DNA of 61,191 nucleotides from an uncultured archaeon (GTDB taxonomy: Archaea > Asgardarchaeota > Lokiarchaeia > Sigyniarchaeales > SOKP01), in the NCBI GenBank assembly GCA_964493715.1, contig CAZBPC010000006.1, positions 1 to 61,191 on the forward strand. The letters are read 5' to 3'. Below the pieces are notes generated by a model that did no database searches, had not been told where the DNA came from, and saw only the letters and a program-made list of their open reading frames with translations. A program made the translations under genes and the position numbers. Positions 362-24,237 of the stretch are shown here, piece after piece (position 1 is the first letter of the stretch; every line of letters starts with the position of its first letter).

Positions 362-793
362 CTAATTGTCTAGTATAAGTTTTTTGTTTAAACTAGTCGC
401 AAATTTCTGAAAATATGCGATTATTTCTTCACATTTCAGAAGTGAAAAATGCCGGGTACTTAATTCAAAACCTGAAATGAATTTAAAATCCTTATTATAA
501 TTCTGATAAAATGAGTAAAACTGAACTTTATATTTCTTTCTGGAAAGTTTTTGAAATATCTTATATTTTTTAGTTTTCTCGATTATTTTAATAACATCAA
601 AATCTTTCCACCATATAAAAAAAGAAGGTTTTTCCAAGATTTTTACTGTTATATAATTTTTTGTAATTCTTATTGCAGATTCTTTGAATACTGGAAAATA
701 ATCTCCAAATTTACTATAATAATATAGTTTTTTATTTTTAATTCTTAAAGAAAATAAAATGACTCCTAAAAAAAATAATATCGAAAAAAACAT
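362..793 (-). CDS. TM + PH-like (bPH) small protein, candidate immunity protein 4 (possibly 5'-truncated)
   Basis: N-terminal hydrophobic helix followed by a beta-rich IRITKNYITVK...FIWWKDFDVIKI pattern typical of bacterial PH-like domains; abuts cassette 793-1062. Confidence 0.5.
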   Translation of the reverse strand: MFFSILFFLGVILFSLRIKNKKLYYYSKFGDYFPVFKESAIRITKNYITVKILEKPSFFIWWKDFDVIKIIEKTKKYKIFQKLSRKKYKVQFYSFYQNYNKDFKFISGFELSTRHFSLLKCEEIIAYFQKFATSLNKKLILDN

Positions 794-1062
794 TATAATA
801 GGGAATCTTGCGGTAACAATAATAATGCTACACTAGCTACAGCAATCGTTAATCCTAATAGAATTATCGCCATAATTGCCCAAACTAGAATATACACTGA
901 TGCTCTAATTAACAACCACATGAGATCTCCGAGTGCTGTGAGAAGTGTCATGAATATCGAATCAGCGAATCCAATCAAATAACCCATTTTTTCCGCAGCG
1001 ATCATCGCCATGTTATAAATTACAACAAGGTGTAAAAATGGGCATAGCCAGGTATAATTCAT
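793..1062 (-). pseudogene. truncated cassette containing the conserved hinge motif
   Basis: DSIFMTLLTALGDLMWLLIRASVYILVWAI aligns with QSIGMTILSWLAHLAWLLVRAAILIFAWI of 5983-7971; the frame stops about 30 aa later. Confidence 0.6.
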
Positions 1063-1204: not shown

Positions 1205-1300
1205 AAAATGAGATTTATTTTTTTATAATTTTAACGTGATTTTGTTCCAGTATTTTAAGTAATGGTTTGTAGTCAAAAACATTATACAATACGTGATAAC
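1205..1300. repeat. direct repeat copy A (3' end and trailer of immunity-like paralog)
   Basis: aaaatgagatttatttttttat.attttaacgtgattttgttcca..attttaagtaa.ggtttgta is near-identical to 3049-3144 (offset 1844); weaker similarity continues into 1147-1204 vs 2996-3048. Confidence 0.85.
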
Positions 1301-1808
1301 TTCTCTGAAGACGTTGGGGGATTTTCACTCCCTTCTCTTTAGAAATTCGAAATCTCCATTCAATAGGACTTGTAGCATCAAATTTAGGGAAGATTCTTAT
1401 TTTAGCAACCTCATCTTTAAGAAATAGCACTTTTTTGATCTCGATTTTATCAATCTTTGAATACTCAAAGGCATAATATTCACTATATTTCTGATTTTCA
1501 CTTTTATCGACAATTTTTTTATTTGTTGCGAAAAATGATCTCTGATCATGAATTATACCTAACCATATAATTATTGAAGATATGACACCAAAAAGTGGAA
1601 AAATTATAATGAAAAATGCGATAAACAGAGTTATAGCAGAAAGAAAAATAAAATCAAAAGAAGAGGATGATCTAAAGATTATATTAGCCATTATGATCCC
1701 AATTATGGAAATTGGTAATGAAATTAAGATTATAATCTCTTGGAATTTTGGGCTAATTTTCGACTGCCAATGAATTTCCTCGTCTTTTTCTATCATATCC
1801 ATTAACAT
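1215..1808 (-). CDS. 2-TM + PH-like membrane protein, candidate immunity protein 3
   Basis: Paralog of 3059-3667 (shared FAT..I.DK.E, F.YS.I.KIEIK, YHVLYNV..YKPLLKILEQNHVKIIKK); GGAGG RBS just upstream. Confidence 0.8.
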   Translation of the reverse strand: MLMDMIEKDEEIHWQSKISPKFQEIIILISLPISIIGIIMANIIFRSSSSFDFIFLSAITLFIAFFIIIFPLFGVISSIIIWLGIIHDQRSFFATNKKIVDKSENQKYSEYYAFEYSKIDKIEIKKVLFLKDEVAKIRIFPKFDATSPIEWRFRISKEKGVKIPQRLQRSYHVLYNVFDYKPLLKILEQNHVKIIKK

Positions 1809-1836: not shown

Positions 1837-2730
1837 TTACACAAATGCTTGTAATAAGAATAAAAATCCAAATCCCATAAACCAAATCATAGTGCATAGG
1901 GTGATTATTTGAGTTATATCTTCCGTTCCAGCGCTAAGACTATCAAAAATCGTTTCAGCTGCAAACCAACATGCAAATATTAACGCAATACCTTGAAATA
2001 ACATTTCAGCAAATTCTCTCATCATTCTATCAAAAGTAGAACCTTCAAACAGAGTATTAATAGAACCAATAATCAATTTTACTCCTGAACCGATAAGAAT
2101 GACTATTATTTTCAAAAACATAACATAAGAGCTCTCAGATGGCTTGAAGTCATGTCCGATTTTACAAAAAAATGCAAATAATAGTACTGCTGTCCATAAA
2201 CCAACAACCCATCCTGCGGAGTAATATGGTGAAAGAGGATCCTCGCTGTTTAGACAAAGTGTAAAAATTGTAGTTGCTACTCCAATAAATAGTGCATATG
2301 TAAGTAATGCAGCTATAGCTTCCAAATTTGGATCGACGAGTATCGGAACAGCTCCCAAAGCTGTAATTATAATCGTAGCAAGTAATATAGAATCACCTAT
2401 ACCATTGAAAAAACGAGTTAATTTTTCATCAACAGATAAATCCTCAACATAGAGTTGATATTGTTCAGTCACGATTATGTCAGTAGAAGTGTTAACCTCG
2501 AAATAAAAATAATACACCCCGATTTTATCAAATGAGAGTTCAAGGAAATATTCTTTTCCATCGGTAAAATCTTCATCTTCCAAATCGGCTTCGGTCATAT
2601 TGTAAACTCTTTCATATATCCAATTATCATTATTAACATGCAACTTGGGGAATCCTGTTTGCGGTGCTCTATTAAGAGCATCCGTATAAATAATCTCAAA
2701 TCTAAAAATGAGATAATCGTTAATCCGCAC
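1837..2730 (-). CDS. orphan C-terminal cassette 3: beta-sandwich domain + ~5-6 TM helices (5'-truncated)
   Basis: IFRFEIIYTDALNRAPQTGFPKLHV...DFTDGKEYF...IGVYYFYF...QYQL.VEDLS is clearly homologous to the middle of 3681-4994. Homology starts abruptly at ~2710 and the GTG start has no obvious RBS. Confidence 0.75.
   Translation of the reverse strand: MRINDYLIFRFEIIYTDALNRAPQTGFPKLHVNNDNWIYERVYNMTEADLEDEDFTDGKEYFLELSFDKIGVYYFYFEVNTSTDIIVTEQYQLYVEDLSVDEKLTRFFNGIGDSILLATIIITALGAVPILVDPNLEAIAALLTYALFIGVATTIFTLCLNSEDPLSPYYSAGWVVGLWTAVLLFAFFCKIGHDFKPSESSYVMFLKIIVILIGSGVKLIIGSINTLFEGSTFDRMMREFAEMLFQGIALIFACWFAAETIFDSLSAGTEDITQIITLCTMIWFMGFGFLFLLQAFV
2639..2670. repeat. 32-bp direct repeat copy A (RAPQTGFPKLH coding segment)
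   Basis: 28/32 identical to 2935-2966 by hand alignment. Confidence 0.8.
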
Positions 2731-2934
2731 ACTACTAAAGCAAGGAATAATGCTGGATATTCAAAAAGACCTCGTGATGTATCGTACTCAGATATCGCTT
2801 CAATATCATCTCTTATTGTAAAACATGTAAATATGATCCATTAAATGAATCACAATTTCCATAGCGCTAACCACACCTCCAAAATTTAATAATGCTCCCA
2901 TAATCATATTTTTAAAACAACCTATTGCTAGACC

Positions 2935-2966
2935 TGCAACTTGGGGAATCTTGATTTCGGAGCTCT
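2935..2966. repeat. 32-bp direct repeat copy B, micro-remnant of another cassette
   Basis: Minus strand reads RAPKSRFPKLQ, versus RAPQTGFPKLH at 2639-2670; lies in the intergenic gap. Confidence 0.75.
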
Positions 2967-3048
2967 CCCAAAAATATCAAAAGTATGTTTCCTTTAATAC
3001 TTGGAACTTATTACTAAGGTTTAAACAATTACTAAAAAAAATTAAAAA

Positions 3049-3144
3049 AAAATGAGATTTATTTTTTTATGATTTTAACGTGATTTTGTTCCAAAATTTT
3101 AAGTAAGGGTTTGTAATTAGATACATTGTATAGTACATGATAAT
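3049..3144. repeat. direct repeat copy B
   Basis: Near-identical to 1205-1300. Confidence 0.85.
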
Positions 3145-3667
3145 CTCCCTCAAAAAGTTGGGGGACCTTCACACCATGTTCTTTGAAAAATTTAAAACTC
3201 CATTCAATAGTGTTTGAAAGATTAAATTCAGGGAAGATTCTGATCAAAACACCTCTTTTTTTAAAAAAAAATCTTGGCTTGATCTCAATTTTATTGATAT
3301 TTGAATATTCAAATATGAAATATTCAATATATTCCTTTTTTTCTCGTTTATCAATAATATTATCATGTGTTGCAAAATATGTAATTTTACCACCCAAACT
3401 CTTTCCAGCTAGCCAGTCAATTAATGCTAAGGTAAATCCAGCCAATGGAAGCCCTAGCAATAATATAGCACTCATTCCGAATAACCCCATTAAAAGAAAT
3501 CCAAATAATCCAGTGGGATAATCTGAGAATTTACGGAAAAAATCTTGGAATAAGATTCCGATTACAAGAACCATTGATGAAATAAGGAATAAGATTAATC
3601 GGAAATATAATTTAACATTTAATTGCCAGAGCATTTCCTTATTCTTTTCTACCATATCTATTGACAT
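3059..3667 (-). CDS. 2-TM + PH-like membrane protein, candidate immunity protein 2
   Basis: Paralog of 1215-1808 with diverged TM helices and an identical C-terminal end; GGAGTG RBS; starts 13 nt after the cassette 2 stop. Confidence 0.8.
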   Translation of the reverse strand: MSIDMVEKNKEMLWQLNVKLYFRLILFLISSMVLVIGILFQDFFRKFSDYPTGLFGFLLMGLFGMSAILLLGLPLAGFTLALIDWLAGKSLGGKITYFATHDNIIDKREKKEYIEYFIFEYSNINKIEIKPRFFFKKRGVLIRIFPEFNLSNTIEWSFKFFKEHGVKVPQLFEGDYHVLYNVSNYKPLLKILEQNHVKIIKK

Positions 3668-3680
3668 TTTTCACACTCCA

Positions 3681-5051
3681 TTAAAATTGAAAGAACTTCA
3701 TAATACTCAAGATTAGGAATCCAAAACCAAAACACATAAGTGTCATTATAGAAGCACGAGCTATCATTTTAGTTGATTCTTCTGTTATTATATTAAATTT
3801 TCCAAAAATTGTTGAAGCTGAGAAGAGACTAGCAATAACCAACAATAAAAATTGAGATGACGAAGTAATCAATGAAATCAAGTCTAATTCGCTGTTATCA
3901 GGATCAAATAATGCTTTGATAGATCCAAAATTTGCTTTAATCACTGCACTAATTATTAACGTTATAAATTTTATGATAGTTAGAGTTGTTGTTTTAGATG
4001 GATCAAAGGACAATGGAAATTTGCAAAATACCCCAAGCAACCCTGCTGAAATTAGAACACCTAAAGACCACCCTAGGGCGCGATATGGAGTATTTTCTGA
4101 CTTACTATTCACAAAGATTCTTAAATTTATCCAAAGTGTTAGCAGTAGTATTCCATACATTATATTTCCAGCAATCATCTCCGCTGTTGGATGTGGGATT
4201 AGAGGAACCAACCCCAAAATTGATATCATAGCTGTGGTGAATGCCATAGAATCATACATACCTTCCTTCAAACTAGTCATTTTTTCCTCAAATGATAAAT
4301 CCTCAATACTAAGTTGATATTGATCAGTTTCGACTGTATCAGTAGGAGTTTCGACATCAAAATAAAAATAATAATCTCCAATATGATCATATGAAATTTC
4401 ATAGAAATATTCTTTCCCATCAGTAAAATCATCATCTTCCCCATGAGTTCCTATCAGGATGTAAACCCTTTCGGATTCTACCCAACCATCATGAATAACA
4501 TGTAGCTTAGGGTATCCTGTTTCTGGTGGTCTATTATCGATATCCGTGTAAGTAATAGTAAATCTAAAGATCGTTTGCGTGTCCCCACCATTAGGATTTA
4601 CATTTATATTACTGAGCGTGCTTTTACCATCGGAAGAAGTGTATACATCTGAAGGACTGCTCATATCGGGATATCCATAATCAAATTCTCGAGACAACCC
4701 TATTCCTATAATTTCTTCTGTTCTAGATGTTAAAGTATTATCCATTGAATCATCCTTGATCACTAAGGGAAGATCGACATCGAAGAAATCAACATGTTCT
4801 AATGTAACGGTCGTTTCCGTTTTTATTGGTAATCCTTTTAAACTGTATTCAAAAGACATTACATCGTAATTTACTTCTCCACCAAGCAATAATATGAAAG
4901 GAACCATGACAAGGTACATGACATACTCCAAAAGCATGTTGAAGATCTTAATTGCCAATACAATATATGCGAATACTAGGATCGCAGCACGCACTAAAAG
5001 CCATGCTAAGTGTGCTAGCCACGAGAGTAATTGCCATAATTTTTGTACTTC
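3681..5051 (-). CDS. orphan C-terminal cassette 2: hinge + beta-sandwich + ~5-6 TM helices (no proper start)
   Basis: The frame is open from 5051 (EVQKLWQLLSWLAHLAWLLVRAAILVFAYI); the ORF track starts at internal GTG 4994. The ATG matching the trunk Met (5035-5037) is out of frame by a 1-nt insertion. Confidence 0.75.
   Translation of the reverse strand, partial: EVQKLWQLLSWLAHLAWLLVRAAILVFAYIVLAIKIFNMLLEYVMYLVMVPFILLLGGEVNYDVMSFEYSLKGLPIKTETTVTLEHVDFFDVDLPLVIKDDSMDNTLTSRTEEIIGIGLSREFDYGYPDMSSPSDVYTSSDGKSTLSNINVNPNGGDTQTIFRFTITYTDIDNRPPETGYPKLHVIHDGWVESERVYILIGTHGEDDDFTDGKEYFYEISYDHIGDYYFYFDVETPTDTVETDQYQLSIEDLSFEEKMTSLKEGMYDSMAFTTAMISILGLVPLIPHPTAEMIAGNIMYGILLLTLWINLRIFVNSKSENTPYRALGWSLGVLISAGLLGVFCKFPLSFDPSKTTTLTIIKFITLIISAVIKANFGSIKALFDPDNSELDLISLITSSSQFLLLVIASLFSASTIFGKFNIITEESTKMIARASIMTLMCFGFGFLILSIMKFFQF
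4981..5037. repeat. hinge repeat copy B
   Basis: 4981-5029 matches 7112-7160 at 47/49 nt, and extends to 5037/7167 with one extra base. Confidence 0.95.
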
Positions 5052-5477
5052 CTAAGTTAATATATACATTATTTTTATAAATATAATAATCTTTAATTTA
5101 GAAATTGTACATCTTTGAATCTCTATCATTGAACGCTTTTTTACTGTTAAGGAATAAGTTATGATAGTGTTAATGCTAATTAAAATTACTTGATCATCTC
5201 CAAGAACAATCGTGAATAAATAAAGAAAAACTAATAATACAATGAGCAAAATCGCAATTCTTATCACTAAATTTCGTGTATCAGTTAAATTCACCAATTT
5301 AACTTGATCACACAATACTTTTTCACTATTTTGAAGATATTTTCCTACAAAATCTTCAGAATTAAATTTATCTTCGACCTGTGTGACAGATATTGATGTT
5401 AACTCTTCCTTTTCTGATATTCCAATATCATTTAAATTCTTGAATTTAATTTTTTGCTTTTTATTTATTTGTTTGAA
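5052..5477 (-). pseudogene. start-less remnant of another TM/PH-like (immunity-type) gene
   Basis: The frame is open 5477-5055: ...EDFVGKYLQNSEKVLCDQVK...IAILLIVLLVFLYLFTIV.... EKVL-C resembles the EEIHW/KEMLW motif that precedes TM1 in the neighbouring paralogs. Confidence 0.4.
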
Positions 5478-5930
5478 TCACTCAATCTGATTTGAGATTT
5501 CTTTCATTATTTCTTTGTAATTTTCAATTAAAAACGTAGGAAAGATTATCTCTTCAGAAACTAATTGGATGATGAATTGTGGATATATCTTGCCCTTCAA
5601 GCGTACCTCCTTTATTTGACTAAAGTGAATGAATCTCGTGGTGACATAATTAATCACGCCATTATTCCTCACTTGAACACCATTCTCGTATACAATAACA
5701 TAGGAAACTAGTACTTTCATTCCAATCCAGAAGAAGATGAATCCTGAAAATAGTAAAAACTCCCAAAAACCAAAGGTGATATCCATTCTTAAGATAAGAT
5801 AAATTTTTATATATAACCATGCTAACATTAAAACTACTCCACACATAAAAAAAGTCATAGAAATATAATCCCGTTGTGTTTTACTTTTTAAAATTTTTTT
5901 TCCAGGTTGATTATTTTTCATATTATTCAT
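5478..5930 (-). CDS. 2-TM + bPH-domain protein, candidate immunity protein 1
   Basis: Two TM helices then YVIVYENGVQVR...FIHFSQIKEVRL, a typical bPH pattern; directly downstream of cassette 1. Confidence 0.75.
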   Translation of the reverse strand: MNNMKNNQPGKKILKSKTQRDYISMTFFMCGVVLMLAWLYIKIYLILRMDITFGFWEFLLFSGFIFFWIGMKVLVSYVIVYENGVQVRNNGVINYVTTRFIHFSQIKEVRLKGKIYPQFIIQLVSEEIIFPTFLIENYKEIMKEISNQIE

Positions 5931-5982
5931 TTGCTTTGATACTATTTAAATTTAGAAAATAATTTTATAAAAAAAAAATTAA

Positions 5983-7971
5983 TTAATTTGATTCTTCGAT
6001 TAAAATTGTATATCCGATTGTTATTAATGATATTCCTATACCCATACTTATAAGCCCAAAGACAAAAGCAATTATCGATTTTTTATCACCATTAAATCCC
6101 CAAAGACTCCCACCTATAACATTACCATAATTAGTTGCTTTACCCTTCTTATGACCTCCAAATAAAACTATGCTAGTTGCCAAGAGAATCATTGAAATAA
6201 CTGCAAAAACACCACTTGCTATTGCTACAATGACTTTAGCGGGAAGATTATTAGCTAAATCGATCCAGTTTAGTTGTTCAAACCAATCTACACCTAACAT
6301 CGATCCTACTCCAATAATATCCAATAATTCAACTAACATAATCACAAATCTTCCATGGTCATAATTGCCTCTCCCAAAAAAAAGCTTGATAATATTTGCC
6401 ATAAATGTATAAGTTGTATCAATATAACCACTCATTATAAAAGCAAATAATCCTGCGATAAAAATCCCATATCCTAAACCCATAAATTTTACAGCTCTTG
6501 TTGTTGGATCATCATTACTAATAATTACTACTGCAAGCAGAATGGTGGCAATGAAGGCTAAAATTGATAAAATCGTTAGTATAGTCTTATACGTCACTTC
6601 AGATTTACACATTTCTAATATGCCTGATATAATACACATAAAACTACAAGCAAGCCCTATACCAGATCCTACAGCTATTAGATAGTCTAATACTAAATTC
6701 CATATAAATAAATCATCAGAAGTACTTGAAGCTTTTACTTTACTTTCACTATATAGTGAATTTTCTGGGTTTGTATTATCGGTGAAAATCTGTTCTAATG
6801 GATTTTCTAGATGGTTTGGAACTCCAATATTATTTGTAAGAAGTGTACATGATAATTCAAAACTGATTTCATTTGAAGTAAAATAGAAGTTCAAAATTGG
6901 AATATCAATTTTAAAGAATTCGATATGACACATATCAATAGTATAACCGATATCAAAGTTAAGATCACCTGAAACTGTAATATTGTTTATCGACAGTGAA
7001 TAATCAATACTAGCAAAAATATCGAAGAGTAAAACCAAACCCATCATGGTTATGATGATGAGATTGACAAATAGAAATAGTAATGCAAATACGATCCAAG
7101 CGAAAATTAAAATCGCAGCACGTACTAACAGCCATGCTAAGTGTGCTAGCCACGAGAGTATTGTCATTCCTATTGATTGAGCATTTTGATTGTTTTGGTT
7201 GGTGATATCTGCAATGCTACTGGCTATTGTGATTATTAGATAAGCTATTCCGAAGGTAATGATGTACAATATTACAACGAGTACCCCTAACCACCACGCT
7301 AAGGGGTCAAAAGGTCTTGGAGCTGCTCCTAACTCCGCACTAACATGAGGACTATCTAATGGGATAAACAACATCGCTGCAGAGGGTAGATTCATCATCG
7401 TGGCTGATATGCCGTCATCTTTTGTCGAAATATAGGAATATAACACGGCAGTTTCGTTGGTTTCCGCGTCAATCAGGCAATTGAGTAATAAATCCAGAAT
7501 TTCCATTGCTTCTTCAGCAGAGAGATCAAATCTTACAATGTGAAAATCGCAATCACCGCAAGCATCTTCGAGTTTATTTCCATCTCTATCAACGGAATAA
7601 AACTCATATTTACCTTCCTCATCGCTATAAAGTGGAGTTTCATCCAATCGGTCATGTTCAATGTAACCATGTAGCTCAGTTTTGGTGAATAAGGAGGTGG
7701 GAATCACGATCGCGTTTGGTCCTTCTACGAAAGGCGTGCCTTCAAATATTGTATCTGTATTCAAGTATAATTGAAATACCGTCGTCCTTTCTTTTTCTTG
7801 ATAATGTCCGGTGAAACCATTGGAGCTAGCATCAAAAATTGCAATCGTATTGGCTCTTTCGATGGCTAATGTCTTGAGTTTCACTTGCACGACATCATTG
7901 TTAGCGTGAGCTACTTGCAACGTCTGCTCATGGCCCACCGAACCTATCGTGTAGTCTAATGTGCCTCCCAC
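5983..7971 (-). CDS. trunk fragment + hinge + multi-TM C-terminal domain (cassette 1); 5'-truncated large protein
   Basis: Acidic soluble N-region (~220 aa), hydrophobic hinge, then ~6 Gly-rich TM helices. The coding frame continues upstream past an in-frame TAG (8008-8010) to ~8100 (FNDKYYLDIDDDFTEQDETIPVTIWG). Confidence 0.8.
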   Translation of the reverse strand: MGGTLDYTIGSVGHEQTLQVAHANNDVVQVKLKTLAIERANTIAIFDASSNGFTGHYQEKERTTVFQLYLNTDTIFEGTPFVEGPNAIVIPTSLFTKTELHGYIEHDRLDETPLYSDEEGKYEFYSVDRDGNKLEDACGDCDFHIVRFDLSAEEAMEILDLLLNCLIDAETNETAVLYSYISTKDDGISATMMNLPSAAMLFIPLDSPHVSAELGAAPRPFDPLAWWLGVLVVILYIITFGIAYLIITIASSIADITNQNNQNAQSIGMTILSWLAHLAWLLVRAAILIFAWIVFALLFLFVNLIIITMMGLVLLFDIFASIDYSLSINNITVSGDLNFDIGYTIDMCHIEFFKIDIPILNFYFTSNEISFELSCTLLTNNIGVPNHLENPLEQIFTDNTNPENSLYSESKVKASSTSDDLFIWNLVLDYLIAVGSGIGLACSFMCIISGILEMCKSEVTYKTILTILSILAFIATILLAVVIISNDDPTTRAVKFMGLGYGIFIAGLFAFIMSGYIDTTYTFMANIIKLFFGRGNYDHGRFVIMLVELLDIIGVGSMLGVDWFEQLNWIDLANNLPAKVIVAIASGVFAVISMILLATSIVLFGGHKKGKATNYGNVIGGSLWGFNGDKKSIIAFVFGLISMGIGISLITIGYTILIEESN
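7112..7167. repeat. hinge repeat copy A
   Basis: See 4981-5037; encodes MTILSWLAHLAWLLVRAAI. Confidence 0.95.
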
Positions 7972-8301
7972 GTATTCATAATCACATGGATCTGCTGGTA
8001 ATATACACTAACCCCATATCGTGACAGGGATCGTTTCATCTTGCTCAGTAAAATCATCATCGATATCAAGATAATACTTGTCATTAAAAAGGATAGTTAG
8101 TAGTATGTTTTCGCTAAATTTCAGTATTAAATTTTTTAGTTTATAATTAATCAAATTATTTTAAAAGTAAAATATCATAGATGCCAAAATTATCTCAGAA
8201 TAATATTTTTTACATTACCAATATTTATTATCTTAAACAATTAAAAACCTCTTAAATTGATAATAGTTACTATTTACGAAAAGTGAGGTGAAAAAGAGAA
8301 A

Positions 8302-15537: not shown

Positions 15538-18500
15538 ATGGGAAAAGGAAATTTTGATAAGCAAGTATTAACCAGATTCGTTCAAACAGAATGTAAAAGG
15601 CAACTATTTTTGGATTTATCTCAAACAAGACCTAAACTCTGGAGAGATCCTAATAGGTTGCTCGTGGATCCTAAAGTTATTCGAAGAAGCTCAGATAATC
15701 TAATAAAATTAGGTCAGCGATATGAACAATTAGTCTATAAACATTTGGTTAATTTTAAAGGTGCATTATATCAAATAGATGCGAAAATTAAGGTTAAAAA
15801 ATCTTATCTTAAACCTATTATATTACTAAACCTATATAACCAAAATGACAAAGATTCCTTTTTATTATTAGAACATCAATACCGTATTCCTCCAAGTTTT
15901 TTTTTCAATCATTTTTTCGATCGATCCAAAACTAACATAATTCCTTTTTATTGGTCAAAACAACGACCCGATATAATGATTATTCGTCGTGAAAAGGATT
16001 TAACAATTCAAGTTAATGAACTTTTAACAGATGGGACAATCCGCACTGTTCCAAAAGAAGAGCTTAAAACAAGATATAGCATATCAATCATTGATATTAA
16101 AAATATCCGAGATGAAAATATTGGAAAGAAGCAATTCATTGAAATTTTATATTACATGTTAACTTTATCTCACTTCTTAAAAGAAAACGATTTATCGTCT
16201 AAATTTTTTGTAAACATTGATTTTAACGGAATTCTTGCTCGTTTAAATGAAGAAAATATTCTAAAGATGAGAACTGTTGAAAATCTCATCTCTGAAATTA
16301 TAAATGTAGATTGGGAAGAATCAAATATAATAATTAAAGATTTAATTTCTCAAATAAAGAATTTATGGAAGAAAACTCCCTGTTCGATTGACGAAATCCC
16401 TGTTAACATTCAACCAAACTGTGGATTCTGTTATTTTATTGAGGATTGCAAAGATTCACTCGGGAAGGATAAAAAAAAACCTTCTAGTGAATGGGATCTA
16501 GCGTTAATTCCTTATACTACTATGTCTATTGCTCAGCAATTAAGAAATGATTATAACTTTTCTACAATAGGAGATGTAGCGGCGAAAGTTAGGACGATCC
16601 AAACGGGAGATACCCCTAAACCAATATATTCTGAGTTACCCCTATTAGAACTAAAAGCTAGAGCACTAATTGAAAATAAAATTATAAAACCAAAACCAGG
16701 GGATATTCATGCATATTCCATACCAAAATATTCAACGATTGGAATAAATTTCGCAGTAGAAACCGATCCAGCAAATCAAAGAGTTTATGCTGCAGGGTTA
16801 TTTCTCTTTATGTCTGTTTTTTCTAAATCTCCATACAGACGAATATATGATAATTGGTGGAGAATCTGGAAAGAAGGATTAGAAGATTCAAAATCCAATG
16901 AAGAGATCCAATTGAAATTAAATGAACATCTGATTCATGAAATTCCAATCAATGTAGTAGATAGGTTTCGTGAATATCTAGAAAAATTAAATCTATTCAA
17001 AACAATATATCTCGCCGGTGATAAAAAGGCAGATGGAACTTTAAGAAAACAAACTGTGGTAATTTATCAATTTGCAAATATCAATGAGGGTGATTCTGAT
17101 GAAACCGAAGGAAAATTCGCGGAGATAATTATTTTAAGGTTATATTATCTCTTGGAAATGTGTAATATAGTCGAAAATTATGTGATAATTGATGCAAAAG
17201 AGGCGGGGAGATATTATGGACCCTCAACAAGTTTATTTTACTGGTCTAAAAGACAATTGAATAATTTCCAAGATATGCTTGAAAGAAATATAAATCATAT
17301 TATCAATAATCAAGAAGTAGCCATTGCCTTTGATGCAATAATTTCATTATTTACGCCTTCAGATTCTGAAGTGGCTCACCCTTATCAACATAAAAAATTA
17401 TTTAATGTACAAGAATTTGCAGAATCAGTTTTTGGTTTTCCCAGTATTATTTCATATACATGGCATAAAATAGCTAAAAAAGAATTTAAAACTTATGCTA
17501 ATAAAAAGTATTGGATTCCGCATTTTAATTACATGGACTTTAATAACTGGTACGATTACATTTTAGAGGAGGATGATGAAAAGAAAAAAGAGAAAAAAAA
17601 AGAGATAACCAGGCAAGTAATGTTTAAAGTCCGAACAATTAACTCTCTGAGAAGTAAATTTCAAGATCAATTCAGTAATATTATATCCAAGAATGTAAGG
17701 GTTATTAATAAAACTCAATTTATCAGTATTTTTTTAAGTCCAGAATTTCACCCAATTAGTCAAGTATGGTATTTATTTTCCAAATACACTGGTGCAATGG
17801 AGGAAATGGATACAGAATATTTCCGAACTACTTTTCCTGAATTTAGTATCGGAAAATTAGCAGCTGCTAAAGTGGAAGATTTAAGGATTTGGAGCCCTAC
17901 AGGAAAGAAAAATATATGTGATTTTAAAATTACCTCGTTATCTAGTAATATGAATATTAATCCGGGAGATCGAGTATATTTACTACCCGATAATGAAAGA
18001 GATACAAAGACAATACAAAAACTGGAACAATGGAAAATTATCATCAAGGAAATGGTTTGGGATCCTAAAATTAATGGATATTATATCTTTTCACAAGAAA
18101 CGAATAGTAAAAGGTTAGATGAATATAAAGGAATTGAAAACCATTTTTCATGGTTTATATATCACACGTCATTAGATGTTTGGTCAAATAAACTATATAA
18201 TAAAAATGGACTATTAGAGCGATATAATTTGGGTAAATCTTGGTTGGGATTTAGACTCTCTTACTTGTGGAATATAAGATCAAAGCAAGAATTATATTGG
18301 CCTTATAATTGGGAATTTTTGACTCCTTCTGTTTATTTATATCTCCCAGAAGTATTATCTTCTCTCACAACTGATCCCTCTAAAAATCTCAGTTCAAAAT
18401 TAATTACTGCAATAAATCCTATTCCTGATGAGTCTCAAATTATTGCAATAAACAATTCTTTAAATCACGTGATTTCAGGAATCCAAGGACCTCCTGGAAC

Positions 18501-20007
18501 TGGAAAATCTCAAACGATAGCAGCTCTTATTGATGAATATTATGAGAGATGTCTTCTTAATGGGAAAAAAACCATTAGAATCTTGGTATCTTGTTTTTCT
18601 TATGCAGCTCTGAAGGTTGTTTTGGATAAAATTCGAATAGGGAAAGATTCATTTGATAATCCTACTAAATCCTCACACTTACAATTAGTTTATTTAAGAT
18701 CTGAATATCAAAAACAAATTGAATCAAAAAAGGGATGTAGAGATGTTGACGATTTGCTCCGAAAGGGTTCCACTTGGAAATTAAATGGAACATCACGAAC
18801 AGTAACAAATAAAATCCATCTAGAAGAATCACTTGAGGAAAGTTTTATTATATTTGCAAATGCTCACCAGTTATATCATTTGGTGGAAAGGGTTAATCCA
18901 GAATTCTCTTTTGATTTGGTAATCATAGATGAAGCAAGCCAAGTTCCTATTCATTATTTTCTATCAAGTTTACAATTCATTATAAAAAAGAACCTTAAGT
19001 TAAAAATTAAAACTACTCCTGGGGAGCCTGGTACTTTAATCAGAGATCGGAGCATTATTGAAGAATTTGAGCTCGAAAGTAAGCTCGATCCAGAAACATT
19101 ATCGAAGGTTATAATCGTAGGGGATTATAATCAATTACCTCCTGTACAACCAATTAAACCCCCTAAAAACTTAGAGGTTATCTTAGGCAGTCTATTTACA
19201 TATTATGTCAGACAACAAAAGATTTCTAATGTTCAATTGAAAGTAAATTATCGTTCGCATCAAGATATTGTTGACTTTACTTCTGCTTTATTATTATATG
19301 AAGATATTAATCCATGTAAGGAAAATGCGCAAAAATTATTAAAGGGAAAAATCAAAAAAGAAGAAGAACAATGGATTAAAATTGTACTAGATCCTCAAAA
19401 GGTTGTTTCTGTTATCGTACATGGGAGAGAATATGAAATTGGAGTAAGTGCTCTTGAAGCAGAATTAGTATCTAACCTCACTATTAGTTATTTTAGTATG
19501 ATAAACCCAAAAACCGGAAAAGAAGAAACTCAATTCTGGAAAGAGAAATTGGGAGTTGTTGCACCGCACAATGCTCAGGGGCGTTTGATCATTAGAAAAA
19601 TATTTGATAGATTAACTGAGGATAAAAATCGATTAACAAATTTAGAAAATCAAGAATTAATGAGGAGATTACGAAATACTGTTTATTCTGTTGAAAAATT
19701 CCAAGGATCTGATCGAGATTTAATTATTGCTTCATTTGGATTATCAGATAAAGATCAACTAGATGCCGAGAGTGAATTTATCTATAATTTAAATAGGTTT
19801 AATGTACTAACCTCCAGGGCTAAATATAAACTAATATTAGTAATGAGTAAAAAGTTTCTTGGGTTCATACCAAATGATAGAACTATTATGACTCAAGCAG
19901 CTCATATTAGGAAATATGCATTTTCCTTTTGTAATGAGGAAATGTTCATTGATATATTCAATGAAAAAAAGGAAAAAGAAACAGTAGTCTATAGATATAA
20001 AAAATAA
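15538..20007 (+). CDS. Dna2/TM0106-like nuclease-helicase: Fe-S PD-(D/E)XK nuclease + RNase H-like domain + Upf1/Dna2-type SF1B helicase
   Basis: C19...RPD...IIDIK...CGFCYFIEDC; FAVETDP; GPPGTGKS, DEASQ, GDYNQLPP, NYRS, APHNAQ, VEKFQG, RFNVLTSRAK. Confidence 0.88.
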   Translation: MGKGNFDKQVLTRFVQTECKRQLFLDLSQTRPKLWRDPNRLLVDPKVIRRSSDNLIKLGQRYEQLVYKHLVNFKGALYQIDAKIKVKKSYLKPIILLNLYNQNDKDSFLLLEHQYRIPPSFFFNHFFDRSKTNIIPFYWSKQRPDIMIIRREKDLTIQVNELLTDGTIRTVPKEELKTRYSISIIDIKNIRDENIGKKQFIEILYYMLTLSHFLKENDLSSKFFVNIDFNGILARLNEENILKMRTVENLISEIINVDWEESNIIIKDLISQIKNLWKKTPCSIDEIPVNIQPNCGFCYFIEDCKDSLGKDKKKPSSEWDLALIPYTTMSIAQQLRNDYNFSTIGDVAAKVRTIQTGDTPKPIYSELPLLELKARALIENKIIKPKPGDIHAYSIPKYSTIGINFAVETDPANQRVYAAGLFLFMSVFSKSPYRRIYDNWWRIWKEGLEDSKSNEEIQLKLNEHLIHEIPINVVDRFREYLEKLNLFKTIYLAGDKKADGTLRKQTVVIYQFANINEGDSDETEGKFAEIIILRLYYLLEMCNIVENYVIIDAKEAGRYYGPSTSLFYWSKRQLNNFQDMLERNINHIINNQEVAIAFDAIISLFTPSDSEVAHPYQHKKLFNVQEFAESVFGFPSIISYTWHKIAKKEFKTYANKKYWIPHFNYMDFNNWYDYILEEDDEKKKEKKKEITRQVMFKVRTINSLRSKFQDQFSNIISKNVRVINKTQFISIFLSPEFHPISQVWYLFSKYTGAMEEMDTEYFRTTFPEFSIGKLAAAKVEDLRIWSPTGKKNICDFKITSLSSNMNINPGDRVYLLPDNERDTKTIQKLEQWKIIIKEMVWDPKINGYYIFSQETNSKRLDEYKGIENHFSWFIYHTSLDVWSNKLYNKNGLLERYNLGKSWLGFRLSYLWNIRSKQELYWPYNWEFLTPSVYLYLPEVLSSLTTDPSKNLSSKLITAINPIPDESQIIAINNSLNHVISGIQGPPGTGKSQTIAALIDEYYERCLLNGKKTIRILVSCFSYAALKVVLDKIRIGKDSFDNPTKSSHLQLVYLRSEYQKQIESKKGCRDVDDLLRKGSTWKLNGTSRTVTNKIHLEESLEESFIIFANAHQLYHLVERVNPEFSFDLVIIDEASQVPIHYFLSSLQFIIKKNLKLKIKTTPGEPGTLIRDRSIIEEFELESKLDPETLSKVIIVGDYNQLPPVQPIKPPKNLEVILGSLFTYYVRQQKISNVQLKVNYRSHQDIVDFTSALLLYEDINPCKENAQKLLKGKIKKEEEQWIKIVLDPQKVVSVIVHGREYEIGVSALEAELVSNLTISYFSMINPKTGKEETQFWKEKLGVVAPHNAQGRLIIRKIFDRLTEDKNRLTNLENQELMRRLRNTVYSVEKFQGSDRDLIIASFGLSDKDQLDAESEFIYNLNRFNVLTSRAKYKLILVMSKKFLGFIPNDRTIMTQAAHIRKYAFSFCNEEMFIDIFNEKKEKETVVYRYKK

Positions 20008-20017
20008 AATTACTTAA

Positions 20018-21577
20018 ATGATTATAATGGAACCGATAAAATTCATTCATATATCAGATATTCATCTCGGTAAGAGACAATATAATTTGAAAGAGAGATA
20101 TAAAGACTATTTTCGAGCATTTAAATGGGTTTTGGATTTTGCTATTAGTAAAAAAGTAGATTTTTTATTAATATCGGGAGATCTTTTTGATAACAAAAAT
20201 ATTAATCCCTCTGTATTGAGTGATGTTTTTTACTTAATTAGGGATTTTAAAAAAAGGAGCTCTTCAGAATTAAATAAAGAAATTCCAATAGTATGTATAG
20301 AAGGAAATCATGATAATCCTGTTTATAAAACCAATTCATGGATGAGTTTTTTGGCCGATTTAGATCTAATTATATTGCTCGCTGGAGATTATGATAAGGA
20401 TAGTAAAAAATTATCTTTTCAACAATATTCTACCTCAAACCATAGAGGTGGAATGGTCCAAATTAAAGATGCCATAATTTATGGACTTCCTTATTATGGC
20501 AGTTTTACTAAACACATGTTTCCCGCAATTTATCAAGCAATTCCTAAAAAAGAGGATAAATTTAACATTTTAATGATGCATTTTGGTATTGAAGGGCAAG
20601 ATAAATCAAAACCGGGAATTGAATTAACGCCTAATCTTAAAAAATTACATGATAAAATAAATTATCTGGCTTTGGGACATTATCATAAGAATTATATATT
20701 AGAAGACCAAGAACAGTGGATATATAATCCAGGAAGTTTAGAATTGAATGATCTTACTGAATTATCTTTTAGTAGAGGCGCCTTTTTAGCCGAAATATCT
20801 GGAAGTGAATATTATCAAAAAGATTTAAAATTTATAGAATGCGATAATGGAAACAAAAATCCTAATAGAATTCCAAACAGAGAATTTTTCCAAATCCAAT
20901 CAATTGATATTACAGGAGAGAGTTCTTTCGAAGGTGCTATAGAATATATATTAAAAAAATTGAAGCAATATGGATTACCACTTCGAGATATAAATAAAGA
21001 AATTAATAAGAGTGATTTGAACTGTCCAATCGCAGCCTTTAAAATTATTGGAGAAGTGGGTTTTTCTCGTTTAGAAATCAATTTAAACAAGCTGAAAGAA
21101 GAGATAATCAAGAAATATGCTGTTTTAGATGTTCGAGTATCTTCTAAGGATTTATTTTCTGCAATAGATTTAATAAAAATCGAAGAAGAAGATTTAACTA
21201 TTGAAAAAATTGAACGACTCGTGTTTAGCGCATTAATAGATCAAAATGAAGAGTATAAACCCCTAAAATCAGAAATCCTTAATTTATTAGATGATTTTAA
21301 GGCTGAACTGATATTAAAAGGACCAAATTACGCAAAACTTAAAGAAGAACTGATTCAATGGAGTAATTTAAATATTAAAGATTTTAAAAATCTAGATATA
21401 GCCAATAAAAAACCCATCGTAGATAGCTTAGAGTCATTTGATCTTAAGGAAAAAGCAGATAAAAATGAAGAAAAAGAAATTGATATAGAAGAAGATAAAG
21501 GATTTAGTGATTATAATGAGTTCGATGATCTTGATAATTTTATTGATGATGGATTTGATGAATCAGGAGATGATTAA
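20018..21577 (+). CDS. mre11: Mre11/SbcD DNA repair nuclease with acidic C-terminal tail
   Basis: SDIHLG, GDLFD, GNHD, MHFG, LGHYH, NPGSLE metallophosphoesterase motifs; adjacent to an SMC-like ATPase. Confidence 0.92.
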   Translation: MIIMEPIKFIHISDIHLGKRQYNLKERYKDYFRAFKWVLDFAISKKVDFLLISGDLFDNKNINPSVLSDVFYLIRDFKKRSSSELNKEIPIVCIEGNHDNPVYKTNSWMSFLADLDLIILLAGDYDKDSKKLSFQQYSTSNHRGGMVQIKDAIIYGLPYYGSFTKHMFPAIYQAIPKKEDKFNILMMHFGIEGQDKSKPGIELTPNLKKLHDKINYLALGHYHKNYILEDQEQWIYNPGSLELNDLTELSFSRGAFLAEISGSEYYQKDLKFIECDNGNKNPNRIPNREFFQIQSIDITGESSFEGAIEYILKKLKQYGLPLRDINKEINKSDLNCPIAAFKIIGEVGFSRLEINLNKLKEEIIKKYAVLDVRVSSKDLFSAIDLIKIEEEDLTIEKIERLVFSALIDQNEEYKPLKSEILNLLDDFKAELILKGPNYAKLKEELIQWSNLNIKDFKNLDIANKKPIVDSLESFDLKEKADKNEEKEIDIEEDKGFSDYNEFDDLDNFIDDGFDESGDD

Positions 21578-21582
21578 TAACT

Positions 21583-24237
21583 ATGATAATAACAAAAATA
21601 GAACTCGAAAATATAGCAACACACAAGTCCACTGTTATAGATTTTCAAGATGGTTTAAATGTGTTGCTTGGTCAAAATGGTACAGGTAAATCTACAGTTC
21701 TAAATATGATTGGATATAATTTATTTGATTTCTTACAAGGAAATCAAGGAAGTTATATACGTGATGATGTTTTAAACCACACAAATCATGGAATTGTAAA
21801 GGTCTGGATTGTAGGATTAAACGATGATCAATTTATAATTTCTAGGACAATTGGAAAACAAGCAAACATTATTGAAGTCTCTGATGCTAAAACAGGGACT
21901 TTATTAACTAGTATTAATGATAAATCAAGCTTACAACAATGGTTAAAGACTCAAATCGGTTTAAAACCAGAATTTAATTTATCAAAACTTTTTAATACAT
22001 CGGTTGGTGTTCCTCAAGGAACTTTTACTGAACCTTTTCTAAGAGCACCTCAAGGTAGAAAAGACTTTTTTGACCCTATCTTACAAGTAGATGTATATCG
22101 ATCTATGTGGATGAAAATAAAGGGCATACAGAGTTCAATTTTAGAAGATATTCATCAATTTGAAAAAGATGCTGAAAAATTAAAAGGTTTTTTGATAAAT
22201 AAGGATGAGTTATTAGATAAAGCTAAAAATTCAGAAGAAAAATTAGATAATTTTCAAAAAAGTAAAGCTGAATTGGAAATTCAATTGAAGAAGGTAAATG
22301 AGAAACATGATCATTTAACAAATCTAAAATCAGAACTAGATCAACTTATTCAATCAACCAAAGAATTAGAAGGAAATCGAAATGAGATGGTCTCAAGGCT
22401 TGAAGAGAAAAAGAAATCTCTAAAAGAAGCAACCGAATCTAACGAACTATGTCTCAAAACTAAAAAGAATTATGAAGAATATGAGAAATTATCTCAAGAA
22501 ATGAATAGAATAAGTGATGTCATTGAATTAGATTCAAAAATTGAAATTATTCTTAAAGATGTTAATAAAATTGAATCTTCAACAAAAGAATTAGATACTT
22601 ATACTATTGATTATCACAAAGATTTAGAATTACAAAAGAAAATTGAAAAACAACAAGAATTAATATCGAAAATTCAAAATGATAAATTACAAATGAGTAA
22701 AATCAGAGAAAATTATACGTCTCTTAGTAAGGATATTAATGATAAAGAGAAAGCTTTAACCAATTATTCCCAAATTAAATCAAAACTTACTGATCTTGAG
22801 AAAATTTTCGAAAATCAAAGAATTTTAGAAAATGAAATTATTAAGTTAGAAGCTGAATTGAATCAATTAAAAATGAATAAAGAACATTCCAAAAATGGAA
22901 AATGTCCTATTTTGAATGAACAATGTAAAAATGTTAAAGATAAATCGCTTGAACAGATTTTTGAAAAGAAAATCAAGGAATTGGAGATAAGACTTCATCC
23001 AAACAAAAAGGAGTTTCAAGCTAATGAACAAAAATTAGTAGATTTTGAAAGAATTAAAAAAGAATATGAAGATCTAAGGGAATCATATCTTAAATTAGAA
23101 TTATATAAAAATCAGAAACTAAATTTAGGACGCGATATCCAAGAAATTAAAAATAATCTAAAAGATGAATCAAATGAGAGAGAAATTTTAACTAAATTGA
23201 AGAAAAATAAGGCTTCTTTAGAGTTAAATGTAAACCAATATCACATCTTAAAGGATAAGTTTGAAAATACTCTGCCGAAATTAAATGATGCGCTTAAAAA
23301 ATTACAAAATGAAAAAGAATCCCTTGTAGAAAGCTTAGGATTTACGAAAAAAGCTAAAAAACCTTCTGAAGACTTTTTTACGACATTTGAATCTATTACT
23401 GATAAAATGAACAAAATACGAGAAGATCATGACATATTTCAAATGAATGAAAAACTAGGGAATCGCTTGCCTGAATTAACCTCTCTTGTAGATGAACTGG
23501 AGAAAAAATTAAAAGAAGCAAATGATAAACTAAAAATCGAGATAGTAACCAAGGAAAGAATTGAAAAATCATTTGATATGGAGGAATATAATATAATCAC
23601 AATGAAAAAAGATGAAATTAATAAATCATATATCAAAATTGAAGAAAACATTAAAAATGAAAGAAGTAATTTTGAAGAGTATTCACAACAAATAGACATT
23701 ATGTTGATAAAAGAGCAAGAATTAACTCAAATTGATGACAAATTAGAAAGTTTAGAATTCTTGGAGAAATATATTGATACAATTAGGACCTGGTATAAAG
23801 AAGCATCTCCCAAAATTACTGAATCGCTTCTAAAACGAGTAAACTTAATCGCTTCAGAGATTTATCGCGATCTTTTTGAAAGTGAAAATATTGAATTAAA
23901 GTGGGAGAATGATTATAATGTCAAAATTGAGACCATTAATAGCACAAAGGAATATCGTCAATTATCTGGCGGAGAACAAATGGCCGCTGCTCTTGCTATA
24001 CGTCTTGCTATTCTAAAAGTCCTTACTAATGCAGATTTTGCATTTTTCGATGAACCTACTACAAATTTAGATAAAGATAAACGTAGTAATCTCGCAAGAT
24101 GCATACAGAATATCAAAGGTTTCCGTCAAATATTTGTAATTTCACATGATGATACGTTCGAAGAGAATGCTGAAAATATAATTAGGTTCACCAAGGACGA
24201 GGAAGAAATTACCCACGTGCAATTTTTAAGCAACTAA
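21583..24237 (+). CDS. rad50: Rad50/SbcC SMC-like ATPase
   Basis: GQNGTGKS, Q-loop PQG, long coiled coil, central CPILNEQC, LSGGE, FFDEPT, ISHD. Confidence 0.93.
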   Translation: MIITKIELENIATHKSTVIDFQDGLNVLLGQNGTGKSTVLNMIGYNLFDFLQGNQGSYIRDDVLNHTNHGIVKVWIVGLNDDQFIISRTIGKQANIIEVSDAKTGTLLTSINDKSSLQQWLKTQIGLKPEFNLSKLFNTSVGVPQGTFTEPFLRAPQGRKDFFDPILQVDVYRSMWMKIKGIQSSILEDIHQFEKDAEKLKGFLINKDELLDKAKNSEEKLDNFQKSKAELEIQLKKVNEKHDHLTNLKSELDQLIQSTKELEGNRNEMVSRLEEKKKSLKEATESNELCLKTKKNYEEYEKLSQEMNRISDVIELDSKIEIILKDVNKIESSTKELDTYTIDYHKDLELQKKIEKQQELISKIQNDKLQMSKIRENYTSLSKDINDKEKALTNYSQIKSKLTDLEKIFENQRILENEIIKLEAELNQLKMNKEHSKNGKCPILNEQCKNVKDKSLEQIFEKKIKELEIRLHPNKKEFQANEQKLVDFERIKKEYEDLRESYLKLELYKNQKLNLGRDIQEIKNNLKDESNEREILTKLKKNKASLELNVNQYHILKDKFENTLPKLNDALKKLQNEKESLVESLGFTKKAKKPSEDFFTTFESITDKMNKIREDHDIFQMNEKLGNRLPELTSLVDELEKKLKEANDKLKIEIVTKERIEKSFDMEEYNIITMKKDEINKSYIKIEENIKNERSNFEEYSQQIDIMLIKEQELTQIDDKLESLEFLEKYIDTIRTWYKEASPKITESLLKRVNLIASEIYRDLFESENIELKWENDYNVKIETINSTKEYRQLSGGEQMAAALAIRLAILKVLTNADFAFFDEPTTNLDKDKRSNLARCIQNIKGFRQIFVISHDDTFEENAENIIRFTKDEEEITHVQFLSN

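Follow-up and report, generated by a model that had tools for sequence, protein, structure and literature searches.

Organisation of the locus and of its hinge repeat

The 61,191-nt stretch analysed here (the window, i.e. positions 1 to 61,191 of contig CAZBPC010000006.1, assembly GCA_964493715.1, from an uncultured Asgard archaeon of the Lokiarchaeia) begins at the end of a contig (C6) in a genome of 160 contigs and 3.68 Mb. Next to this contig end lies a locus whose genes are all on the minus strand: a full-length gene encoding a protein of 662 amino acids (aa) is followed downstream by small partner genes, with two transmembrane (TM) segments, and by three promoterless remnants of its variable C-terminal part (Table 1). 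In the full-length product, an N-terminal part, the trunk, is joined to a C-terminal part, the tip (here tip1), by a TM helix referred to as the hinge, and nearly the same hinge DNA occurs a second time in front of an orphan tip (tip2). An initial annotation, made from the letters of the DNA, had taken this repeat for a recombination boundary, an interpretation that is supported by the data presented below.

Table 1. Features of the trunk-hinge-tip locus, listed in the direction of transcription (window coordinates)
Feature	Position	Strand	Description
Upstream remnant	8008..8154	-	homology to the family 5' of the GTG start codon, disrupted by a TAG in frame (8010-8008)
Full-length 662-aa gene	5983..7971	-	GTG start; trunk (aa 1-268), hinge helix and tip1
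Trunk	7168..7971	-	acidic alpha/beta soluble domain (aa ~1-220), first TM segment and short loop
Hinge copy 1, expressed slot	7112..7167	-	in-frame ATG and codons for TILSWLAHLAWLLVRAAI
Tip1	5983..7111	-	variable C-terminal module: one TM, then an acidic loop of ~96 aa and six more hydrophobic segments
p150	5478..5930	-	small 2-TM partner directly after tip1
Orphan-slot flank	5052..5477	-	141-codon open frame, ends at TAG 5054-5052
Hinge copy 2, orphan slot	4981..5037	-	ATG out of frame through one extra base
Orphan tip2	3681..5051	-	456 codons open from stop to stop; no ATG, GTG or TTG before GTG 4994
p202	3059..3667	-	2-TM partner, lysine/arginine (K/R)-rich, PH-like C-terminal domain
Tip fragment, 297 aa	1837..2730	-	C-terminal tip part without hinge; 40% identical to the C-terminal part of tip2
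p197	1215..1808	-	partner gene, paralogue of the p202 family
p89	793..1062	-	second hinge type: type-B trunk end, diverged hinge 889-918, 31 aa to stop (regex scan)
p143	362..793	-	small K/R-rich protein with one TM segment, overlapping p89 at the latter's end

The hydropathy profile of the 662-aa protein displays TM segments at residues 220-256 and 270-324 and six more, with a loop of 13 aa between the first hydrophobic segment and the hinge helix. This helix starts at M269, whose codon is the ATG at 7167-7165, in frame within the 662-aa open reading frame (ORF; 7971..5983). Of the 49 nt that the two hinge copies (4981-5029 and 7112-7160) comprise, 47 are identical, the only differences being a C at 4992 for a T at 7123 and an A at 4998 for a C at 7129. 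Their longest exact run is 31 nt (4999-5029 = 7130-7160) and ungapped similarity reaches 77 nt (66/77; 4953-5029 versus 7084-7160). On either side the sequences are unrelated: global alignment gives 53% identity upstream and 61% downstream, which corresponds to the background between unrelated flanks; the near-identical repeat amid strongly diverging sequence that had been noticed initially was thus borne out. When a 50-mer was searched with up to 3 mismatches, exactly two sites were returned in the window, and two or more matches occurred in none of 100 dinucleotide shuffles. Both copies are read in the frame of a long ORF and encode the TM helix MTILSWLAHLAWLLVRAAIL. Because both mismatches are synonymous, the copies would have diverged about as recently as the strains compared below (trunk dS 0.20), though their flanks cannot be aligned.

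The genome-wide count proposed in the initial annotation gave three near-identical and two diverged hinge copies in the genome of the window. The third near-identical copy forms the extreme end of contig C65, the final 55 nt of which are identical to window 7130-7184. The exact 31-mer is present in four public metagenome contigs (L049, L050, L051 and L052) and had no match in the genome-contig collection, a scan from which the window's own genome was possibly absent. An RNA structure in the hinge was also considered and rejected, as 139 of 200 shuffles folded equally well or better (minimum free energy of the hinge -13.3 kcal/mol, z 0.59); an Rfam scan of the window returned no match.

In the orphan slot, the ATG at 5037-5035 is out of frame with the 456-codon frame (5051..3681), and the insertion of one base described initially is real (ATG GCA ATT A CTC versus ATG ACA ATA CTC). 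The extra base occurs in all four orphan-slot copies (window, L049, L050 and L052), which carry three different tips, with L050 reading ATA for ATG. The frameshift thus appears to be an inherited property of the slot. That the orphan is silent unless recombined, as first suggested, is plausible, and internal starts exist in its frame. An alternative, possible but unlikely, is that tip2 would be translated as a stand-alone membrane protein from GTG 4994 or from an internal ATG, its hinge likeness reflecting shared ancestry. Gene callers do annotate a 412-aa protein here (P0040), the frame is open over its whole length, and an A/T-rich TATA-like stretch and a purine-rich one precede the ATG (a by-eye reading, weak in a genome of 30% GC). 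However, GTG 4994, the first canonical start in frame, falls in the middle of the hinge helix, and the ATG matching the near-invariant M269 is out of frame in each of the four copies. Independent translation of the orphan and recombination at the hinge would in any case be compatible. As a separate observation, M269 is conserved at 90% or more in the family and orphans keep an ATG at this place, which raises the question of an internal start in full-length genes.

The hinge as a boundary of conservation and a probable site of tip exchange

The window protein was compared with eight proteins having a close trunk or hinge (P0002, P0018, P0004, P0005, P0006, P0007, P0009 and P0003). Identity amounts to 81-100% in the soluble trunk, 37-100% in the first TM segment and loop, and 85-100% in the hinge (aa 269-288), and falls to 18-59% in the next 22 residues (aa 289-310) and to 20-44% beyond aa 310. 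A sharp boundary between trunk and hypervariable C-terminus, which is one of the defining traits of polymorphic toxins, is therefore found in these eight close relatives: P0002 has a trunk 98% identical to that of the window followed by an unrelated tip, and P0006 combines a trunk 88% identical with a tip of the tip2 type. Tandem paralogues in four other genomes give a similar picture, since the 83-88% nucleotide homology spans the trunk and ends at the hinge in three of them (L035, L042 and L043); in the fourth (L041) trunk homology stops 84 nt before the hinge.

Further evidence comes from eight hinge copies (the two of the window, that of C65, and those on L049, L050, L051 and L052) compared in 28 pairs. 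The hinge is 82-100% identical in all of them. The 60 nt upstream fall into two classes that share 52-55% identity: a trunk flank (window 7160+, L050 and L051; 97% identical) and an orphan-slot flank (window 5030+, L049, L050 and L052; 90-100% identical despite the different tips that follow). The 150 nt downstream define tip classes, namely tip1 (98%), tip2 (87-99%), tip3 (100%) and tip5, with 55-63% identity between classes. The trunk flank is joined to tip2 in L051, as a full-length open frame of 608+ aa, and to tip3 at the end of C65 and in P0018, whose 113 trunk residues are those of the window; the orphan-slot flank is joined to tip2 in the window and in L050, and to tip3 in L052 (459 nt, 99.6% identical to C65). 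All four combinations of the two flanks with tip2 and tip3 were thus found, every breakpoint lying inside the ~50-nt hinge.

The orphan-slot flank precedes three unrelated tips (tip2, tip3 and tip5), and its 3' part is the truncated copy of a gene encoding 156 aa, the intact version of which is found in the same genome (G000:C14:55343-55810). As the flank is a truncated gene copy, its junction would have a single origin, and this single-origin flank in front of three unrelated tips, together with the four-way pattern of flanks and tips, requires an exchange between flank and tip. The arrangement of the window across both hinge copies is reproduced in the separate contig L050, with 97.6% identity over 3127 nt, and a contig from another genus (G011:C75) has the same layout of full gene, partner, orphan hinge and tip, and partner, with a direct repeat of 169 nt (83%) over the hinge. 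The initial annotation had named the absence of further hinge copies and of alternative trunk-tip junctions as the outcome that would speak against it; both kinds were found.

Judged from these comparisons, the hinge is probably a recombination junction for tip exchange. The helix would represent the fixed junction between a conserved trunk and an exchangeable membrane tip, and because all copies have almost the same DNA sequence, this DNA would act as a homology patch at which homologous recombination replaces one tip by another. If 7112-7160 and 4981-5029 were to cross over, 2131 nt comprising tip1, p150 and the orphan-slot flank would be lost and tip2 fused to the trunk; that the fusion would be in frame, as predicted at the outset, agrees with the coordinates, (7971-7158) and (5051-5027) both being multiples of 3. 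The array of the window would then represent a layered record of replacements, in which displaced tips and their partner genes were left as start-less orphans.

Junctions of positions 7160 and 4980, which the initial annotation had proposed to look for in reads, were sought among contigs; one was found for another strain and none for that of the window. The joining contig, from run X12, is 884 nt long at a depth of 21.2; it connects 4976 with 7108, 46 nt fit both sides and 2131 nt are skipped. Longer contigs in X7 and X12 join 2667 to 4530. In these strains, as in L051, the trunk, the hinge, the N-terminal part of tip2, the 297-aa fragment and p197 are contiguous, trunk through fragment forming one gene. 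The second boundary (2667/4530) falls within the tip, where a conserved beta-rich domain (F-R-F-x-I-x-Y-T-D) begins. Relative to the X7 and X12 strains, the window gives the impression of having undergone two insertions or displacements in succession.

Several points weigh against tip exchange through the hinge. The joined contig of X12 differs from the window at 35 of 265 and at 37 of 618 letters and so belongs to another strain, 6-13% diverged; it documents evolutionary exchange and not a fresh deletion in the window's strain, and the joined form may be the ancestral, never-interrupted arrangement rather than a deletion product. The junction evidence consists of assembled contigs, which hide rare variants, and among those of the source run X1, which likewise drop such variants, no junction of 4976 to 7108 was found for the strain of the window. 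Perfect homology is short (the 31-nt exact run within 47/49 overall). C65 and P0018 possibly represent an orphan with a long trunk remnant (compare L049, with its tip3-like module) and not an expressed allele. Finally, the 662-aa gene itself, in what is called here the expressed slot, resembles a truncated remnant: with no signal peptide, an in-frame TAG just upstream and no giant form in the genome, it is only putatively expressed.

The same data bear on other explanations. In the first, tips would be switched frequently within a clone by a programmed mechanism, as in antigenic or phase variation, the orphans serving as a silent library and the out-of-frame ATG as a silencer. The conservation of the extra base in four of four orphan-slot copies before three different tips would fit such a mechanism, as would the intact 456 codons of the tip2 orphan and the better conservation of the hinge relative to the preceding TM segment (85-100% versus 37-100%). 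This explanation is nevertheless improbable: no same-strain junction occurs among the source-run contigs, a scan of 22 neighbouring ORFs (8.3 to 37 kb) revealed no recombinase gene, other orphans have decayed, and common descent of the slot explains the conserved frameshift equally well.

A second explanation, to which we give somewhat less credit still, invokes protein constraint only: the helix would be structurally essential and the downstream copies would be decaying paralogue debris, with no recombination at the hinge. Constraint on the peptide is indeed apparent, as the hinge motif W-L-[LI]-[IV]-R-A-x-I-L is kept family-wide even where the DNA differs and M269, L272, L275, W280, R284 and L288 are each conserved at 90% or more, and the frameshifted orphans of G011 and L049 would suit debris. 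It leaves unexplained, however, an exact run of 31 nt with only synonymous differences beside unalignable flanks, the occurrence of all four flank-tip combinations with their breakpoints inside the hinge, and the presence of one truncated-gene flank before three unrelated tips. That the repeat and the alternative junctions are mis-joins made by the assembler at a shared k-mer is very improbable. An overlap like that of C65 with the trunk, exact over its final 55 nt, is indeed what a branch in a de Bruijn graph typically produces; in the source run, Logan contigs are interrupted at each of the two hinges; and all junction evidence comes from short-read assemblies. Against this, L050 repeats the window arrangement across both hinges, L051 carries trunk, tip2-type tip, fragment and p197 in one contig of 21.6 kb matched in X7 and X12, the joined forms show strain-specific differences on both sides of the hinge, and P0002, P0006 and P0018 come from further assemblies. 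Recombination at the hinge is thus retained as the preferred reading.

Other genes of the array, the trunk and its family

Most members of the downstream array have counterparts elsewhere. A paralogue of p150 (54%) follows a tip1-like fragment on contig C150, and tips of the tip2 type are fused to trunks in C84/P0041 (55%), P0006 (69%) and L051. For p202, 11 database proteins were retrieved including the query, the sole source name being on a Promethearchaeota record. The counterpart of the 297-aa fragment is the C-terminal part of the full-length, trunk-fused protein of L051 (97.7% nucleotide identity over 1656 nt including p197), and p197 is 100% identical to its L051 homologue over 204 codons. 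The p89 product resembles C84 and P0026. A paralogue of p143 (36%) follows the intact 156-aa gene on C14; the latter locus (G000:C14:55343-56674) consists of this intact gene, then the p143-like gene and a type-B trunk-end remnant near the contig end, and so may represent a paralogous or an ancestral arrangement of the distal part of the array.

Three consecutive frames, those of p150, of the 141 codons of the orphan-slot flank and of orphan tip2, share one reading frame (3681-5930) and are split only by TGA 5480-5478 and TAG 5054-5052, which is probably a consequence of the conserved flank. Genetic code 4, which would merge p150 with the next frame through one TGA, was rejected and the standard code kept because the p150 homologue on C150 stops at the same place. 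Read-through of TAG codons by pyrrolysine was likewise set aside, with no PylD above the cut-off and no CUA tRNA among the 16 tRNAs called by Aragorn, a set from which intron-bearing ones are probably missing. Aragorn also calls a tRNA-SeC (anticodon TCA) at G000:C26:15797-15889, and the genome may therefore use selenocysteine. Further along the window, on the plus strand (15538-24234), three adjacent genes encode a protein of 1489 aa in which AAA_11/AAA_12 helicase domains are found, a metallophosphoesterase and an SMC/AAA_23-like ATPase of 884 aa, which could form an SbcCD-like repair module or a defence module.

On the other side of the locus, homology to the family extends upstream of the GTG start. 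In a comparison of translations, the relative P0003 has a W at the position of the upstream in-frame TAG, and the tblastn alignment of a giant relative reaches window 8130; P0002, from another sample, begins at the same V as the 662-aa gene. The latter may be the displaced C-terminal piece of a once longer gene of the giant type.

Purifying selection acts on the trunk, with a dN/dS of 0.16 in comparison with L051 over 185 codons (dS 0.20). Its soluble domain (window 7306-7971, 222 aa) was modelled by AlphaFold2 (AF2) with a pLDDT of 79.4 and a pTM of 0.78. No fold match was obtained for it, the best Foldseek E-values being 0.27 in PDB and 0.14 among viral models (BFVD) and the best VIA Z 2.4. 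A larger model of 300 aa, taken whole, matched only long helices, and no fold was assigned. A profile search of PDB gave a single hit (E 0.77) and a search of the protein atlas nothing usable. At the sensitivity of Foldseek and VIA-align, the trunk domain has therefore no detectable relative of solved structure. For tip1, a weak, sub-threshold similarity to SUR7/PalI was recorded (E 4e-5, 23.8 bits for a cut-off of 29.6).

Of 8000 candidates scored against the 662-aa protein, 28 reached E<=1e-3, namely the query and 27 database homologues; these are all annotated as hypothetical, and the only organism names on their records are Promethearchaeota archaeon and Thorarchaeota archaeon. No Pfam family was found for this protein or for the 22 homologues scanned. 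When 1.84 billion representatives were searched with a profile of the soluble trunk, 207 clusters were obtained at E<=1e-3; many of them are proteins of 2,000-5,870 aa in which the domain is located 450-1,000 residues before the C-terminus. Within the taxonomic family of the window's genome, 17 of 98 other genomes contain the trunk; in a phylum-wide sample, it occurs in 14 of 66 genomes of that family, in the single genome of a second family and in none of 231 genomes from 28 other families. From this sampling, the family is apparently restricted to one Asgard lineage. It often forms the C-terminus of adhesin-like giants of 2,300-6,000 aa. Because two such giants carry PKD, LamG, TSP3, DUF2341 and lectin domains together with an N-terminal hydrophobic segment, they are read as putative adhesin-like surface proteins, of which the trunk-hinge-tip unit would be the C-terminal end. 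The genome of the window holds only short forms of the family. No paper about the family came up in literature searches; the 2019 survey of polymorphic toxins in archaea and its supplements lay outside these searches, so that an earlier mention is possible.

Possible function and comparison with known systems

The organisation of the locus was assessed against the definition of polymorphic toxin systems that Zhang et al. are said to have given in 2012. Judged by its genetic hallmarks, namely a display part, a sharp junction, hypervariable C-termini, a downstream membrane protein and start-less orphans, the locus appears to be organised like the arrays of toxins and orphans in such systems. Start-less cassettes of orphan tip and partner that keep a piece of the conserved part occur in the window (5051-3681, 2730-1837 and p89) and in L049, L052 and G011:C75. 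Behind each tip, both in the window and in G064, G011, G047, G093 and L049, comes a small gene with one or two TM segments. In p197 and p202, two TM segments precede a K/R-rich C-terminal domain of 110 aa that is probably cytoplasmic; p197 has a weak similarity to bPH_3 (E 0.036, 15 bits for a cut-off of 23) and p202 had no hit. Close pairs of tips have close partners (0.38/0.55, 0.54/0.47 and 0.49/0.55). The N-terminal hydrophobic segment and the PKD, LamG, TSP3 and lectin domains of the giants would fit display at the surface, with neither a delivery machinery nor a cleavage site for release of the tip identified.

Other results count against a toxin or recognition function. General co-variation of tips and partners is low (Spearman rho 0.20, p 0.08, from 78 non-independent pairs), tip3 has a partner of the p202 family, and tip1, tip2 and tip3 match no known toxin family, with no Pfam family above the cut-off in searches to E<=1. 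Some orphans have decayed, those of G011:C75 and L049 carrying frameshifts. In two relatives, P0019 and P0027, the terminal domain of the tip has an H-E-x-x-H motif, recognised by eye and with no Pfam hit. The tips of P0019, P0027 and L041:3067-6012 are of another kind: the hinge and several TM helices are followed by aspartate-rich TSP3-like repeats and then by the H-E-x-x-H domain.

On balance, the chances that the system works like a polymorphic toxin/immunity or a self-recognition system are about even. If so, the tip would be the variable effector or identity module and the downstream 2-TM, PH-like protein its cognate protector or partner. More tentatively, the locus might belong to a contact-dependent competition or kin-recognition system of Lokiarchaeia-type Asgard archaea, in which a giant adhesin-like protein with an exchangeable tip is accompanied by a PH-like partner, and in which the near-invariant hinge DNA serves as the crossover site that would let strains, and possibly single lineages with silent orphans, re-arm. 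Asgard archaea are the closest known relatives of eukaryotes, and almost nothing is known of how they recognise neighbours, compete or attach. Cell-cell contact being central to ideas on eukaryogenesis, the hinge locus offers a concrete candidate: a lineage-restricted surface or membrane family with the hallmarks of polymorphic conflict or recognition systems.

Among known systems, the archaeal polymorphic toxin systems surveyed by Makarova et al. (mBio, 2019) reportedly combine variable C-terminal toxin domains with downstream immunity genes; in contrast to this class, Pfam scans found no known toxin or immunity domain here. CdiA-CT/CdiI systems consist of a giant surface protein with a sharply bounded polymorphic C-terminus, and their orphan CT/immunity pairs share the VENN boundary sequence. 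Unlike CdiA, the present family displayed no TPS, FHA or VENN features in Pfam scans, and its boundary peptide is a hydrophobic helix inside the membrane. In Proteus, variable regions of the membrane proteins IdsD and IdsE bind a cognate membrane partner and set identity, with delivery by a type VI secretion system (T6SS); this pair is a possible functional analogue, with no homology, for a variable membrane module accompanied by a small membrane partner. The analogy to the VENN (CdiA) and DPxGL (Rhs) boundaries drawn in the initial annotation thus holds for the architecture of the locus and not for the junction itself, which is a transmembrane helix, no VENN, DPxGL or YD features having been found. 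This suggests that a TM helix can take the role played in bacteria by these soluble motifs.

The nearest experimentally studied analogue is the main/orphan rhs locus of Salmonella. As described by Koskiniemi et al. (2014; PMC3967940), recombination between main and orphan genes over 522 bp of 95% identity fuses and activates the orphan tip, and tips that are orphans in one serovar serve as main tips in another. Like the Rhs main/orphan loci of Enterobacteriaceae (PMC3967940), the present locus has a conserved N-terminal part, a hypervariable tip and a small specific gene, and start-less modules of orphan tip and partner downstream that keep a piece of the conserved region. Differences are equally clear. 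The homology patch measures 49-77 nt here, or at least 339 nt for the trunk-remnant type, versus the 522 bp given for Salmonella in the same source. In the scans of the window protein, the 22 homologues and the two giants, neither YD repeats nor a DPxGL-type motif nor any Rhs Pfam match was found; a TM helix forms the junction, and multi-pass membrane modules take the place of soluble enzymes as tips; and the host is an archaeon, with no known link to a T6SS.

The nearest archaeal analogue is VARTIG of the Thermococcales (Makarova et al. 2021; PMC8416519), a large surface protein whose hypervariable C-terminal module is shuffled between strains. In VARTIG, the variable unit is an Ig domain and the recombination sites, spread over ~600 nt, could not be mapped (PMC8416519). 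Both systems are archaeal, have a recombining hypervariable C-terminus and are organised like a polymorphic toxin system. They belong to different phyla and have no sequence relation, and, unlike the Ig domain of VARTIG, the module exchanged in the Lokiarchaeia is a membrane one. The site of recombination, for which such mapping was not achieved in VARTIG (PMC8416519), can here be mapped to a hinge of ~50 nt.

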